DNA of 64,000 nt from the NCBI GenBank assembly GCA_964473465.1, contig CAYYPE010000011.1, forward strand, positions 555 through 64,554, read 5' to 3'. A program made the position numbers and the translations under genes. The notes below the pieces were generated by a model. The model searched no databases. It had not been told where the DNA came from and saw only the letters and a program-made list of their open reading frames with translations. Positions 5,518 through 12,103 of this stretch are shown here, in pieces; positions within the stretch are counted from its first letter, which is position 1; every line of letters starts with the position of its first letter. The DNA is from an uncultured Hyphomicrobiales bacterium (GTDB taxonomy: Bacteria; Bacteroidota; Ignavibacteria; Kapaibacteriales; UBA2268).

Positions 5518-7038
5518 TTATTTTCCCCAATCCGGAAAAATTATTGGGACGAAATTAAAAACCTTACTACCCAAAAAATACATGATTAATGATACAATGA
5601 TAATTCCAATTAAATTTAGCAAAATGCCGGCTTTCATCATTTCATTAATGGTTACTTTTCCTGAACTGAAAATTATTGCATTTGGTGGTGTTGCCACTGG
5701 AAGCATAAATGCGAAAGATGCTGAAATAGTAGCTGGAATCATCAGCAGGAGGGGATTAATTTCCAATGAAACTGAAAGTGCTGCAATAATTGGCAATAAT
5801 GTTTGGGCTGTTGCAGTGTTTGAAGTCAGTTCTGTTAAAAAAGTTAAAATTGTGCAGATAATTACTATCATAATAAAAGGATGAATTGTTCCAATGACGG
5901 ATAGCTGTTCTCCTACAACTTTTGATAATCCGGTTTGTTGAAAACCCTCAGCAAGTGCAAAACCTCCACCAAATAGCAATACAATATCCCATGGAATTTT
6001 TTTAAAGAGGGTATTATCAAGAATTGTTCTATTTGGCTTTGATTTTGATGGTATTACAAATAAAAGTAGCACCATAAATATTACTACTGTTCCATCATCT
6101 ATCCATTTATCAACTCCAAGAAAATTCGACCAACCCGGAATAACAGCAAAACCCAGATTTAGTTCTTGCCTGAATATCCAAAGGAATCCAGTGATTAATA
6201 AAATAATAAGTAAAACTTTTTCCTCGAAAATAGCTTTTCCCAGCTTTTTATATTCATCTTTAACAAAATTTTTATCAATTTGAATATTATGTTCTTTTTT
6301 AATGAAAAGCCTTGTTAAAATAAACCATGATGCGGTTAACATACTCAAAGAAATAGTCAAACCAATAGGGAGCCAATTGCTGAAGGTAATCTGAGGACCG
6401 TTAGGAAAGTTCATCTGGAAAATTCTTTGAAAAATCAGGTTTGGTGCAGTTCCAACTAAAGTTCCAACTCCGCCGATTGAACATGAATAACCTATCCCAA
6501 GCATAAGTGCCACGCTGAAACCTTTGACCAAATCCTTGTCATACTTTTCTTCAAGTTGAAGAATTATTGCATAACCAATTGGGAACATCATCACAGCCGT
6601 AGCTGTATTGTTGATAAACATAGATACCAATGCCGAAGCAAGCATAAAGCCAAATATAAGAGCTTTTTGACCACCACCTATAATTTTTATTATTTGTAGG
6701 GAGATTCTTTTATGTAGTCCCCAACTTTCTATAGCTACAGCTATTATGATACCTCCAAGAAAGAGAATAATTGTGCTATTAAAATATTGATTTGCAACCA
6801 TTTTAGCATCTATTATTTGAAGATATGGGAAAAGAATAATAGGAAGTAAAGCTGTAACAGCCAAAGGAACTGCTTCTGTCATCCACCATACAGCCATTAG
6901 GAGTGCAACTGCAGCCATCTTTGAAGCGGAAATATTTTCAGGTATTAAATTGAAATTGATAAAAATCAAAAATAAAACAATACCGGACAGAAGCCCTATA
7001 TTTTGCAAATTAGTTCTTGGACTTTTTTTATCACTCAT
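5518..7038 (-). CDS. SLC13/DASS-type (ArsB/NhaD superfamily) Na+-coupled anion permease
   Basis: 506 aa and polytopic. The N-terminal AAVALLMAVWWMTEAVPLAVTALLPIILFPYL hairpin motif is typical of DASS/CitT-like symporters. It lies 100 nt upstream of, and co-directional with, the lyase gene. Confidence 0.75.
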   Translation of the reverse strand: MSDKKSPRTNLQNIGLLSGIVLFLIFINFNLIPENISASKMAAVALLMAVWWMTEAVPLAVTALLPIILFPYLQIIDAKMVANQYFNSTIILFLGGIIIAVAIESWGLHKRISLQIIKIIGGGQKALIFGFMLASALVSMFINNTATAVMMFPIGYAIILQLEEKYDKDLVKGFSVALMLGIGYSCSIGGVGTLVGTAPNLIFQRIFQMNFPNGPQITFSNWLPIGLTISLSMLTASWFILTRLFIKKEHNIQIDKNFVKDEYKKLGKAIFEEKVLLIILLITGFLWIFRQELNLGFAVIPGWSNFLGVDKWIDDGTVVIFMVLLLFVIPSKSKPNRTILDNTLFKKIPWDIVLLFGGGFALAEGFQQTGLSKVVGEQLSVIGTIHPFIMIVIICTILTFLTELTSNTATAQTLLPIIAALSVSLEINPLLLMIPATISASFAFMLPVATPPNAIIFSSGKVTINEMMKAGILLNLIGIIIVSLIMYFLGSKVFNFVPIIFPDWGK

Positions 7039-7122
7039 TTATTACAGGTTTCATTATAAAAATTTAAAAAAGAATATTTTAAACTAACAAAATAATTAAT
7101 ACTGTTTAAATTCCTTTTCAAT

Positions 7123-7389
7123 TTAATATTTGAGGAATTTATGTTCAACAAGTAATTGACCCTTCCATAGTAAGTCAATATATCCATTTTGTCTGTAACC
7201 CTTTGTAACTTTTACTTCGAAAGAAGCTACTCTCCGTCTGTTTAAGCCGAAAACCTGAAAAAAATCATCCCAGAAAGTTTTTGCTTCAGCTTCTTCGGAA
7301 GTCTCTTTCTCCCATTCTTTTACGAATTCTGCTGCACGAGCCTTTATTTCATTCCAACTAAGTGACATAAACAAAAATGTTATTAACAA
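7123..7389 (-). pseudogene. N-terminal remnant (~80 codons) of an MmeI-family type IIL restriction-modification enzyme
   Basis: MSLSWNEIKARAAEFVKEWEKETSEEAEAKTFWDDFFQVFGLNRRRVASFE…GYIDLLWKGQLLVEHK is almost collinear with the MmeI N-terminus (MALSWNEIRRKAIEFSKRWEDASDENSQAKPFLIDFFEVFGITNKRVATFE…GFVDLFWPGILLIEMKSRGK). The ORF stops right after EHKF, where intact homologues run for ~900 more residues. The flanks are AT-rich non-coding sequence. Confidence 0.8.
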
Positions 7390-7557
7390 CTGAGTTAATA
7401 TAAAATTTCATAATAACTTTTTTTCAACAATTTAATAATTTCCTAATTGAAATTATATTAAATTTATTTTTATTTCTTTATCAAATAAAATTGAGATTCC
7501 TTGAAAAATCAATAATTTTGTAATGTTTATCAATTGTTTTATTCTTATAGAGGATTT

Positions 7558-9039
7558 ATGGAAAAATTCAAAAATTATATTAATGGTCAATGGCTTGAGC
7601 CAATTTCACAAAAGTATTACCAAAATATAAACCCAGCAAATATTGAAGATATTATTGGAGAATTTCCGGAGTCGGGCCTTGAAGATGTGAATCTGGCAGT
7701 TCAGGGAGCAAAAGAAGCTTTCAAAAAATGGAGGCTTGTGCCGGCTCCCAAAAGAGGAGATATACTGAGAAAAGTTGGTGATATTTTTACAAGACGAAAA
7801 AATGAGCTTGCAAGAATTATGACAAGAGAGATGGGAAAGCCTGTTTTCGAAACCAGCGGGGATATTCAGGAAGCAATTGATACAGCTTATTATGCTGCTT
7901 CAGAAACAAGGAGACTCTTCGGTTACAATGCTCCAAGCGAGATGATGAATAAAATGAATATGTCTTTTCGTGTTCCTGTTGGTGTTTGCGGTGTAATAAC
8001 AGCTTTTAATTTTCCTATTGCTGTTCCATCCTGGAAAATTCTACCAGCTATTGCAGCCGGTAATACTGTGGTTTATAAACCTTCAAAAGATGTGCCTCAT
8101 TCAGGATTTATTTTTGCAGAGATAATGGAAGAAGCGGGAATCCCACCCGGTGTTTTCAATGTTGTTTTTGGAAAAGGGTATATGGGCAATATGATAGTTG
8201 AGCATCCTGATGTTAACTTGATTGGATTTACCGGCTCAACTACCATTGGCTGTCAGATTGGAGAAATATGCGGCAGGTTAAACAAAAAAGTATCTCTCGA
8301 AATGGGAGGTAAAAATCCGCAAATTGTTATGGCAGATGCAAATCTTGAGCTTGCACTCGAAGGAGTTCTCTGGGGAGCATTCGGAACGACCGGACAGAGA
8401 TGCACTGCAACTTCCAGACTTATTATTCACAAGGATATTTATAATAATTTTATTGATATGTTGGTTGAGAGAGCTTCGAAATTACGTCTTGGTAATGGAT
8501 TAAACCCAGAAACTCAGGTTGGTCCGGTAATCCATAAACAACAGATTGATACTTGCGAGGAATATGTTAAGATTGGACTTGAGGAAGGGGCAAAATTAGT
8601 TTTAGGAGGAAAGAGAGCCACTGAAGGTGAACTTGCAAAGGGTTATTTCTTCGAGCCAACAATATTTGTTGATGTTACAAGGAATATGCGTCTGTTCAAA
8701 GAGGAAATTTTCGGACCCATTCTATCAATCACAAAAGCTGAATCATTCGAGGATGCCATAGAAATAGCAAATGATTGTGAATTTGGACTTTCCTCCTCGA
8801 TTTATACAACAAATGTAAATTACGCTTTTAATGCTATCAGAGATATTGAAGCCGGAATCACATACATTAATGCCCCAACAATCGGAGCCGAAGCACATAT
8901 GCCTTTTGGCGGTGTGAAAGGAACAGGTAACGGTCACAGGGAGGGTGGCTGGACGGTGTTTGATATATTTACAGAGTGGAAAACGGTTTATGTGGATTTC
9001 TCTGACAGGCTGCAAAGAGCTCAGATAGACAATTATTAA
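7558..9039 (+). CDS. NAD(P)-dependent aldehyde dehydrogenase
   Basis: ALDH superfamily: catalytic Glu motif LEMGGKNP, catalytic Cys motif GQRCTA, and a GxGxxG-like NAD-binding segment. The start is placed at the ATG at 7558, preceded by the SD-like GAGGA; the ORF-track start at 7534 has no RBS. Confidence 0.9.
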   Translation: MEKFKNYINGQWLEPISQKYYQNINPANIEDIIGEFPESGLEDVNLAVQGAKEAFKKWRLVPAPKRGDILRKVGDIFTRRKNELARIMTREMGKPVFETSGDIQEAIDTAYYAASETRRLFGYNAPSEMMNKMNMSFRVPVGVCGVITAFNFPIAVPSWKILPAIAAGNTVVYKPSKDVPHSGFIFAEIMEEAGIPPGVFNVVFGKGYMGNMIVEHPDVNLIGFTGSTTIGCQIGEICGRLNKKVSLEMGGKNPQIVMADANLELALEGVLWGAFGTTGQRCTATSRLIIHKDIYNNFIDMLVERASKLRLGNGLNPETQVGPVIHKQQIDTCEEYVKIGLEEGAKLVLGGKRATEGELAKGYFFEPTIFVDVTRNMRLFKEEIFGPILSITKAESFEDAIEIANDCEFGLSSSIYTTNVNYAFNAIRDIEAGITYINAPTIGAEAHMPFGGVKGTGNGHREGGWTVFDIFTEWKTVYVDFSDRLQRAQIDNY

Positions 9040-11062: not shown

Positions 11063-12103
11063 ATGAAACAGAAATCCTATGGTTTACCACCTGAATCAAT
11101 AGTATTCATAGGTGAGAAGAAGACAGAGAAAATAACAATAAATGTTTTTGAATTTAACTCTGTTACCTGCAAAGAATATACCTTAGAGGATATCAATGAT
11201 TTAAAAATCAAGAAAGATGATACTAACTATTGGGTCGAGATTATTGGTCTCCACGACACAAGCATTCTTGAAAACATAGGTTCAAAATACAAAATTCATC
11301 CCCTGATTCTTGCAGATATTGCTAATACCGAGCATTTCCCAAAACTTGATATTACCCCCGATTTCGTTTTTATCGAGCTAAAGCTAATAAATTATTCCAA
11401 TGAGGAAAACGAGATTTCTTCAGAGCAAATAGCGTTTTTAATTGGCGATACCATTCTATTTACTTTTTTAGAGAGTCACACCGACATTTTCAATTTTGTT
11501 AAAGAAAGATTAAGAGGAAAACATTCTAACTTAACAAATTATAATATTGAATTTCTTAGTTACTCACTTATAGATTCTATTGTTGATAAATACTACCTGA
11601 TTCTTGGTGAAATCGGAGAAAAAATTGAAGAGCTCGAAGATGAAATGCTAAAAGGACCAAACCCCAAGACAATGGATATCATTCATAACTTAAAAAGAAA
11701 CATAATTTTTATCAGGAAAGCTGTCTGGCCACTTAGGGAGATTATCCGCAAGCTGGAAATGGACGTAAGGGATAATCATAATTCAATTGGAATCTATTAC
11801 AAAGATTTATATGACCATATCATTCAGGTCATTGATACTATCGAAACACAACGGGAACTGGTAGCAGAAATGATGGAGATCTATCTTTCGAGTGTCAGTT
11901 TCAAACTAAATGATATTATCAAGGTTTTAACTATCATTTCAACTATTTTTATACCTCTTACCTTTATTTCCAGTATTTATGGTATGAATTTCCATTATAT
12001 GCCTGAATTATCTTGGAAATGGGGCTATCCTCTAATTATGTTAATAATGTTTTCTATTGGTCTTGGTATGTTGTTATTTTTTAAAAGAAAAAAATGGTTT
12101 TAA
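11063..12103 (+). CDS. corA: Mg2+/Co2+ transporter CorA
   Basis: 346 aa with the conserved YGMNF (GMN) motif just before two C-terminal TM helices. The architecture is canonical CorA. Confidence 0.9.
   Translation: MKQKSYGLPPESIVFIGEKKTEKITINVFEFNSVTCKEYTLEDINDLKIKKDDTNYWVEIIGLHDTSILENIGSKYKIHPLILADIANTEHFPKLDITPDFVFIELKLINYSNEENEISSEQIAFLIGDTILFTFLESHTDIFNFVKERLRGKHSNLTNYNIEFLSYSLIDSIVDKYYLILGEIGEKIEELEDEMLKGPNPKTMDIIHNLKRNIIFIRKAVWPLREIIRKLEMDVRDNHNSIGIYYKDLYDHIIQVIDTIETQRELVAEMMEIYLSSVSFKLNDIIKVLTIISTIFIPLTFISSIYGMNFHYMPELSWKWGYPLIMLIMFSIGLGMLLFFKRKKWF

Follow-up and report, generated by a model that had tools for sequence, protein, structure and literature searches.

The described systems with which the locus treated here can be compared are MmeI of Methylophilus methylotrophus (type IIL/IIG, PDB 5HR4) and the other members of the MmeI family. 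Residues 1-155 of MmeI form its nuclease domain, cleavage requires dimerisation of that domain, and mutation of any one of the residues D70, E80 and K82 abolishes cleavage (PMC4833311). The fold order and the motif positions of the family have also been set out (PMC2731913). The intact orthologues present in relatives of the organism studied here have the same five-domain order as MmeI (MmeI_N, MmeI_hel, MmeI_Mtase, MmeI_TRD and MmeI_C) and stand alone without a companion methyltransferase, as has been described for the MmeI family (PMC2731913). Three genes of the family, those of NmeAIII, DraRI and ApyPI, were found by Morgan et al. in 2009 to be natively disrupted in their sequenced hosts, which was read as active and inactive states coexisting in natural populations (PMC2731913).

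The locus described here lies in a stretch of 64,000 nucleotides, to which we refer as the window, from a lineage that a permease scan of species-representative genomes identified as Candidatus Kapaibacterium / Kapabacteria. Like the NmeAIII, DraRI and ApyPI genes it shows more than one state, since its clade holds intact, deleted and empty alleles. The lesions of those three genes are point lesions or frameshifts that can be repaired by a single base change, whereas 92% of the window gene has been physically deleted, so that it could be restored only by recombination with an intact allele. The first 77 residues of the window copy are collinear with MmeI, including the catalytic D...ExK, but unlike MmeI the copy is half a nuclease domain with the other four domains absent, and it cannot be such an enzyme.

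The remnant ORF and its full-length relatives

The mechanical ORF at 7123..7389 (- strand) encodes 88 aa from a TTG codon. A reading made earlier from the letters of the window and their ORFs (the sequence-only reading) had taken this ORF as its object; the ORF exists, but its upstream TTG start is unsupported. The N-termini of the homologues all read MSLSWNEI or MPLSWNEI, which places the true start at the ATG of 7368, and because the homologues all begin at the residue opposite that ATG, the seven additional N-terminal residues are a mechanical extension encoded by an in-frame TTG stretch (7369..7389, - strand) that lies outside the gene. The gene-like unit is accordingly 7123..7368 (- strand), with 81 aa from the ATG at 7368-7366. 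Within it, 7138..7368 (- strand) holds the first 77 codons of what was once an MmeI-family type IIL restriction-modification gene, and the tblastn match ends at 7138.

The remnant peptide matches the Pfam family MmeI_N (PF20464) with E=8.1e-16 and 59 bits (cutoff 27) over profile positions 2-70 of 181, and its residues 1-77 align with residues 1-82 of MmeI (PDB 5hr4) at E=8e-18. These strong matches to MmeI/type IIL N-termini confirm the proposal of the sequence-only reading that the ORF is collinear with the start of MmeI and then ends. Residues I64-D65 and E75-H76-K77 align with V69-D70 and E80-M81-K82 of MmeI, which are the catalytic PD-ExK residues; the motif D65...E75-H76-K77 is kept, with the K77 codon at 7140-7138. 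When a full-length relative is used in tblastn, family similarity ends exactly at K77 (window 7138), which by the fold order of the family is the end of beta-strand 3 (PMC2731913). The rest of the ORF (7123..7137, - strand) is an out-of-family tail of FLKY and a TAA stop at 7125-7123, read from what was formerly the 3' untranslated end of the cassette that carried the gene. The final 24 nt of that original cassette, past the old stop, remain at 7113..7136 (- strand); they are missing from empty sites and unconstrained. Four substitutions and a 1-nt insertion in them are specific to the window, in a neighbourhood that differs from the intact allele of locus L180 by only ~1.5-4%, and this cluster made the early TAA that closes the tail. 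A reading of the 57 nt after codon 77 as decayed coding sequence was rejected, since this stretch consists of the final 24 nt of the cassette 3' end followed by the permease leader.

The NCBIfam scan assigned the remnant peptide to no family, tblastn with a 933-aa full-length relative found no other MmeI-like pieces in the 64-kb window, such as might have been moved by rearrangement, and the window gave no match in tRNA and Rfam scans. Of the features by which the MmeI family is recognised, the remnant has a PD-ExK motif aligned to D70/E80/K82 (PMC2731913), and it has no companion methyltransferase gene, the intact loci being one gene directly between the aldehyde dehydrogenase (Aldedh) and permease genes. 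Its nuclease domain is incomplete, as the profile coverage shows, and similarity over the whole length of ~900-1000 aa, which the genes of L010, L178 and L180 display, is lacking in an ORF of 81 aa. Judged by its domain content, the window ORF is a remnant derived from an MmeI-family member and would not be a functional member.

The proteins obtained from a word-indexed homologue search were all short (81-142 aa), and many of the best 150 representatives from an exhaustive HMMER scan (1.84 billion representatives, 2,356 matches, top 150 considered) have 95-300 aa, as would be expected if the remnant belonged to a naturally short (~90-130 aa) stand-alone MmeI_N family and no truncation had taken place. 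The short matches, however, leave the family consensus at differing points, their tails are unrelated, and many lie on contigs of 1-5 kb. The best HMMER match is a protein of 933 aa (P0016) with 76% identity over residues 1-122 and all five MmeI domains, and ~25 of the best 150 of the 2,356 matches measure 875-1030 aa. Scanning metagenome contigs with an intact orthologue yielded 80 more full-length relatives, at 50-59% identity only. The MmeI-type family is naturally ~900-1000 aa long, as the sequence-only reading had stated of its intact homologues, and a natural length of ~90 aa does not apply to the full-length homologues among the best 150 matches or to those of 949 aa in the syntenic slot. 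With that slot holding a 949-aa gene whose N-terminus is identical, and with the missing 2,637 bp mapped to the nucleotide, membership of a short family has next to no probability, and for the window locus it is refuted by the syntenic intact genes of L010, L178 and L180.

The gene for P0016 itself (L009:10001-17814, GCA_022865305.1) has an unrelated context, an apparent defence island, where its neighbours are an HTH protein, a HATPase_c_3 protein, an AAA_15/AAA_21 ATPase and an N6_N4 methyltransferase; it was set aside as of no use for synteny with the window slot. Five short MmeI_N-only metagenome proteins of 89-131 aa (P0007, P0009, P0010, P0014 and P0015), on contigs of 2.7-14 kb, each diverge from the consensus of the family at a residue of their own, an indication that metagenomes often contain MmeI-family genes that are truncated or frameshifted.

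The slot, its four states and the deletion junctions

The remnant lies between a gene for an SLC13/DASS (Na_sulph_symp) permease (5518..7038, - strand; Pfam E=1.3e-72) and one for an aldehyde dehydrogenase (7558..9039, + strand; Pfam Aldedh E=1.3e-169), where the sequence-only reading had placed it. Its flanks are AT-rich (15% GC) but are not the junk that they had been taken for, consisting of native intergenic sequence on one side and a conserved permease leader on the other. The intergenic region (7369..7557, 189 nt) separates the divergent Aldedh and MmeI-family genes, is conserved in relatives and presumably holds the promoters of both. About 90 nt of it nearest the ATG belong to the cassette, homology to empty sites stopping ~95 nt from the Aldedh start, and it differs from the intact L180 at ~6 positions (7510, 7459, 7396, 7394, 7392 and 7387). 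The leader (7039..7112, - strand) is outside the cassette and is conserved in occupied and empty sites; within it a block of 21 nt, TATTAATTATTTTGTTAGTTT at 7081-7101, is conserved in both kinds of site even in distant relatives, and may be a promoter or regulatory element. A sigma-70 consensus scan upstream gave nothing above shuffles, the consensus being uninformative for this phylum. No terminator-like site was found by a scan between the remnant ORF and the permease, and to judge from the sequence, read-through from the old promoter into the permease is possible.

Further loci were gathered through exact-protein look-ups and cluster members, and among them the slot between Aldedh and permease is found in four states, namely intact, two deleted states that we term Δ1 and Δ2, and empty. 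In the intact state, L010 (Ca. Kapaibacterium sp. SKW166) carries a 949-aa ORF with five Pfam domains, deposited as MCX7735465.1 (P0285), 'class I SAM-dependent DNA methyltransferase', of a Candidatus Kapabacteria bacterium, and the same gene order is seen in L178, L179/L180, L181 and L182. The alignment with syntenic loci that the sequence-only reading had called for has thus turned up, in exactly this slot, an MmeI-family gene that is intact and encodes 949 aa (L010 and L178-L182); this ORF of L010 and the 949-aa alleles of L178 and L180-L182 differ from the window copy in being of full length. The first 77 residues of the alleles in L178 and L179/L180 are identical to those of the window (77/77), and L010 shares 70/77. 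The Δ1 state is that of the window and of L006-L008 (81 aa), and also of L170 and L173-L175, termed Δ1b, in which the early stop is lost through a 1-nt difference past the junction and the ORF has 105 aa. The Δ2 state is a 125-aa remnant in a sister lineage (L001-L005, L176 and L177). Three more distant relatives (L017, L171 and L172) are empty, with an intergenic region of 154-195 nt.

Comparison with the nearest intact allele, L180, gives a BLAST identity of 96.4% up to 7137 and of 96.1% from 7139, and defines Δ1 as a loss of 2,637 bp comprising codons 78-949 and 19 nt past the stop. The junction (7137..7139, - strand) is AAT, a perfect microhomology of 3 nt that sits within the imperfect repeat GAG(C)AT[A/C]AAT. 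The left parent reads ...GAGCATAAAT|CATCAGG, where the left T is position 1 of codon 78, and the right parent ...GAGATCAAT|TCCTCAT, where the right T lies 19 nt beyond the TAA stop; joined, they give ...CATAAAT|TCCTCA. The breakpoint does show what was lost, as the sequence-only reading had supposed it might, and of the possibilities that it raised the lost unit is a single-gene cassette and no larger island. Set against the empty sites, the cassette amounts to ~90 nt upstream, a gene of 2,850 nt and ~45 nt downstream, or ~3 kb, and the G+C content of the gene, 33.8% (GC3 25%), equals that of the host (34.5%).

The junction of Δ2 is GATGAAAATA|T(A/T)CTTTTTT, with a microhomology of 6 nt (AAAATA); ~2,563 bp are lost, from codon 123 to ~80 nt past the stop, and codons 1-122 are kept, followed by a tail of ILF and a stop. 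Since Δ2 removes TATTAATTATTTTGTTAGTTT, which the window keeps, and retains codons 78-122, which are missing from the window, neither deletion is nested within the other. Each arose independently, and in their common ancestor the gene was complete.

Several observations on the neighbouring sequence may be added here. In the L001 lineage, where Δ2 has deleted the TATTAATTATTTTGTTAGTTT block, the permease may rely on the old promoter of the MmeI-family gene. Δ1b lacks the cluster of changes at 7113-7136, and a 1-nt difference there gives it a tail of 28 residues that ends 11 nt before the permease ATG; a 50-aa ORF of the window at 7035..7187 is the alternative frame that matches this tail. Elsewhere in the window a CorA-family gene of 346 aa (11063-12103, + strand) lies between an S41 peptidase gene and a gene for a 296-aa protein; it is present at that site in L171, L172 and L180, whereas the L001 lineage, syntenic in other respects, lacks it.

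The source is evidently a metagenome-assembled genome, and the coexistence of intact and deleted alleles in close populations can confuse assemblers, so an artefact of assembly or binning, with the full gene present in the real genome, has to be weighed. The Δ1 junction, however, is also carried by 8 other contigs, which come from 7 samples and 4 assembly sources (L006-L008 and L170 from Logan, SRR runs; L173 from ENA ERZ505355; L174 from ENA ERZ27245573; L175 from JGI 3300010289); these are independent assemblies, made in several studies and with several assemblers. Both flanks are collinear, and across the junction the window matches L006-L008 at 99.97-100% identity. We regard an artefact as extremely improbable.

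In our view the ORF is, with high probability, the leftover of a microhomology-mediated deletion in a single-polypeptide MmeI-family (type IIL) restriction-modification gene. The ancestral gene had 949 codons, encoding a PD-ExK nuclease, a helical spacer, a gamma-class N6-adenine methyltransferase, a target-recognition domain (TRD) and a C-terminal bundle, and sat between the aldehyde dehydrogenase and SLC13 permease genes in its ~3-kb cassette. One deletion between the two AAT triplets in GAG(C)AT[A/C]AAT took codon 78 and all that followed, as far as 19 nt beyond the stop. What survives is the upstream region with the start codon and the first 77 codons, to which 4 fortuitous codons and a stop are now joined. 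An 81-aa product, should it be made at all, is predicted from its domain architecture to have no restriction or modification activity: with the spacer, methyltransferase, target-recognition and C-terminal domains absent it cannot bind its target, methylate or cleave (domain limits from PMC4833311). The activities that characterise the family, those of an endonuclease cutting at a distance of ~20 nt from an asymmetric site and of an N6-adenine methyltransferase, would thus be missing from the fragment. As restriction and modification reside in one polypeptide, the strain would have lost both together. Expression of the peptide is possible, to go by the native upstream region and start codon that are kept and by the lack of a terminator before the permease. 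The sequence-only reading had spoken of a decayed fossil; a remnant of a defence gene it is, but decay overstates the case, the 77 residues still being identical to those of intact alleles, as fits a young and clean deletion remnant. We infer that the remnant is young and that its pristine look is mainly due to youth.

Selection and recombination at the retained codons

Over the 77 codons, the window and L001 differ by 18 synonymous and 0 nonsynonymous changes, with a dS of 0.57 against 0.76-0.96 in the flanking genes. This pattern was rejected as a sign of selection on the fragment, the deletions not being nested, the ancestor having been intact, and intact alleles carrying the identical 77 aa; because the deletions are independent and the intact alleles encode the same 77 residues, it represents constraint on the full enzyme. 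The intact 949-aa alleles are under purifying selection outside the TRD (omega 0-0.09), and for codons 1-77 the intact phase shows 0 nonsynonymous against ~25 synonymous changes. Changes that followed truncation were taken to be those within the crown groups of Δ1b and Δ2. The Δ2 crown has a nonsynonymous to synonymous (N:S) count of 5N:2S (Q38H, V54I, H76R, D120N and L124F), H76R being a change inside the ExK triplet, and the Δ1b crown has 0N:3S. The pooled crowns (5N:5S) differ from the intact phase (0N:~25S) with Fisher p=0.0008, a comparison of small counts in which recombination is a confounder. For remnant sequence 74-80% of changes are expected to be nonsynonymous under neutrality, with which the pooled crowns are roughly compatible (p=0.03-0.15), and an omega of 0.03 is rejected (p=0.003). 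It appears from these counts that constraint was relaxed after truncation, truncated copies gaining amino-acid changes at about the neutral proportion and intact copies gaining none.

The comparison of the window with Δ1b (L173), which shares its junction, gives 1N:6S over codons 1-77, with a neutral probability of 0.0004-0.004, although the upstream spacer has diverged by ~7% and the 24-nt tail shows 5 differences. Taken together with the 0N:3S of the Δ1b crown, this at face value resembles purifying selection on the remnant. We do not take it as a sign of function. With L001 as outgroup, 63 quartet sites support a pairing of the window with L180, against 17 for the window plus Δ1b and 29 for L180 plus Δ1b. 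The grouping of the window with L180, which carries an intact gene, holds on both sides of the junction, and the dS of the permease gene is 0.12 between the window and L180 and 0.26 between the window and Δ1b. Since the flanks place the window nearest to the intact L180, a single clean vertical origin of Δ1 is not seen. The quartet sites of both flanks revealed no patch near the junction that groups the window with Δ1b and would mark recombinational import of the deletion. About 40% of the quartet sites conflict, and the dS of the gene body between L178 and L180 (0.17-0.32) is below that of the flanking genes (0.56-0.79), from both of which it follows that the locus exchanges DNA. Recombination at the locus is the likeliest cause both of the presence of the Δ1 junction in a lineage that is not the window's closest relative and of the mostly synonymous differences between the two. 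Three scenarios would fit, in which Δ1 arose twice at the imperfect repeat, was spread by recombination, or was followed by re-acquisition of an intact allele in L180. In all three, much of the divergence between the window and Δ1b arose in, or came from, intact genes, which would give a synonymous-only pattern without selection on the fragment.

Between the intact alleles L178:35-2884 and L180:7035-9884, both encoding 949 aa, the nuclease, spacer, methyltransferase and C-terminal domains are 95-100% identical, whereas the target-recognition domain agrees at 146/225 positions, with ~55% identity over aa 648-825 and sharp boundaries, and has a dS of 1.03 against 0.17-0.32 elsewhere. This looks like a replacement of the TRD between the two alleles, and different recognition specificities probably segregate at one locus.

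Against this background it may be asked whether co-option has made the N-terminal fragment into a functional small protein under purifying selection, for example one that interferes with nuclease-domain dimerisation of incoming or resident MmeI-like enzymes, or that acts as a leader ORF of the permease. The synonymous-only or nearly synonymous-only counts (0N:18S against L001, 1N:6S against Δ1b with its shared junction, and 0N:3S in the Δ1b crown) would be expected of such a protein, as would a native upstream region and start codon that are still in place, the lack of a terminator ahead of the permease, and a Δ1b ORF that ends only 11 nt short of the permease ATG. Since MmeI cleavage needs nuclease-domain dimerisation (PMC4833311), one can conceive of a dominant-negative role. 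Identity of the 77 residues in intact alleles, however, assigns the 0N:18S to selection on the full enzyme, and in a locus that recombines, variants that are synonymous only can be imported from intact alleles. Δ1 and Δ2 also keep different lengths, 77 and 122 family residues respectively, and end in differing tails (FLKY and stop, 28 aa, and ILF and stop); the Δ2 crown has gained its 5N:2S, including H76R in the ExK triplet, and the fragment ends halfway through the nuclease fold (PMC2731913). We therefore think co-option quite unlikely. A broader alternative is that either the 77-residue piece is selected as a small protein, such as a decoy that poisons dimerisation of MmeI-type nucleases, or Δ1 is a recurrent, sequence-directed 'off switch' at GAG(C)AT[A/C]AAT; this we hold to be unlikely.

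Turnover of a defence gene at one slot

The window ORF, taken as the leftover of a deletion, is a real but ordinary, young gene remnant, and the locus is a well-resolved case of ordinary defence-gene turnover. Inactivated restriction-modification genes are common, and natively disrupted genes of the MmeI family were described in 2009, so that the remnant alone matters little. An annotation should call the 81-aa ORF a pseudogene fragment rather than a small protein or a methyltransferase, and the strain should be assumed to be without the methylation motif of the lost system. If a recurrent Δ1 'off switch' were true, then together with TRD-swapped alleles and re-acquisition it would amount to a long-lived polymorphism of a defence gene, in on and off state and in specificity, at one slot. 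The value of the locus lies in a clean, nucleotide-resolved record of defence-gene turnover in an uncultivated Candidatus Kapaibacterium lineage, in which one slot shows an intact type IIL system, alleles whose TRD appears to have been replaced, two independent microhomology deletions and empty sites.
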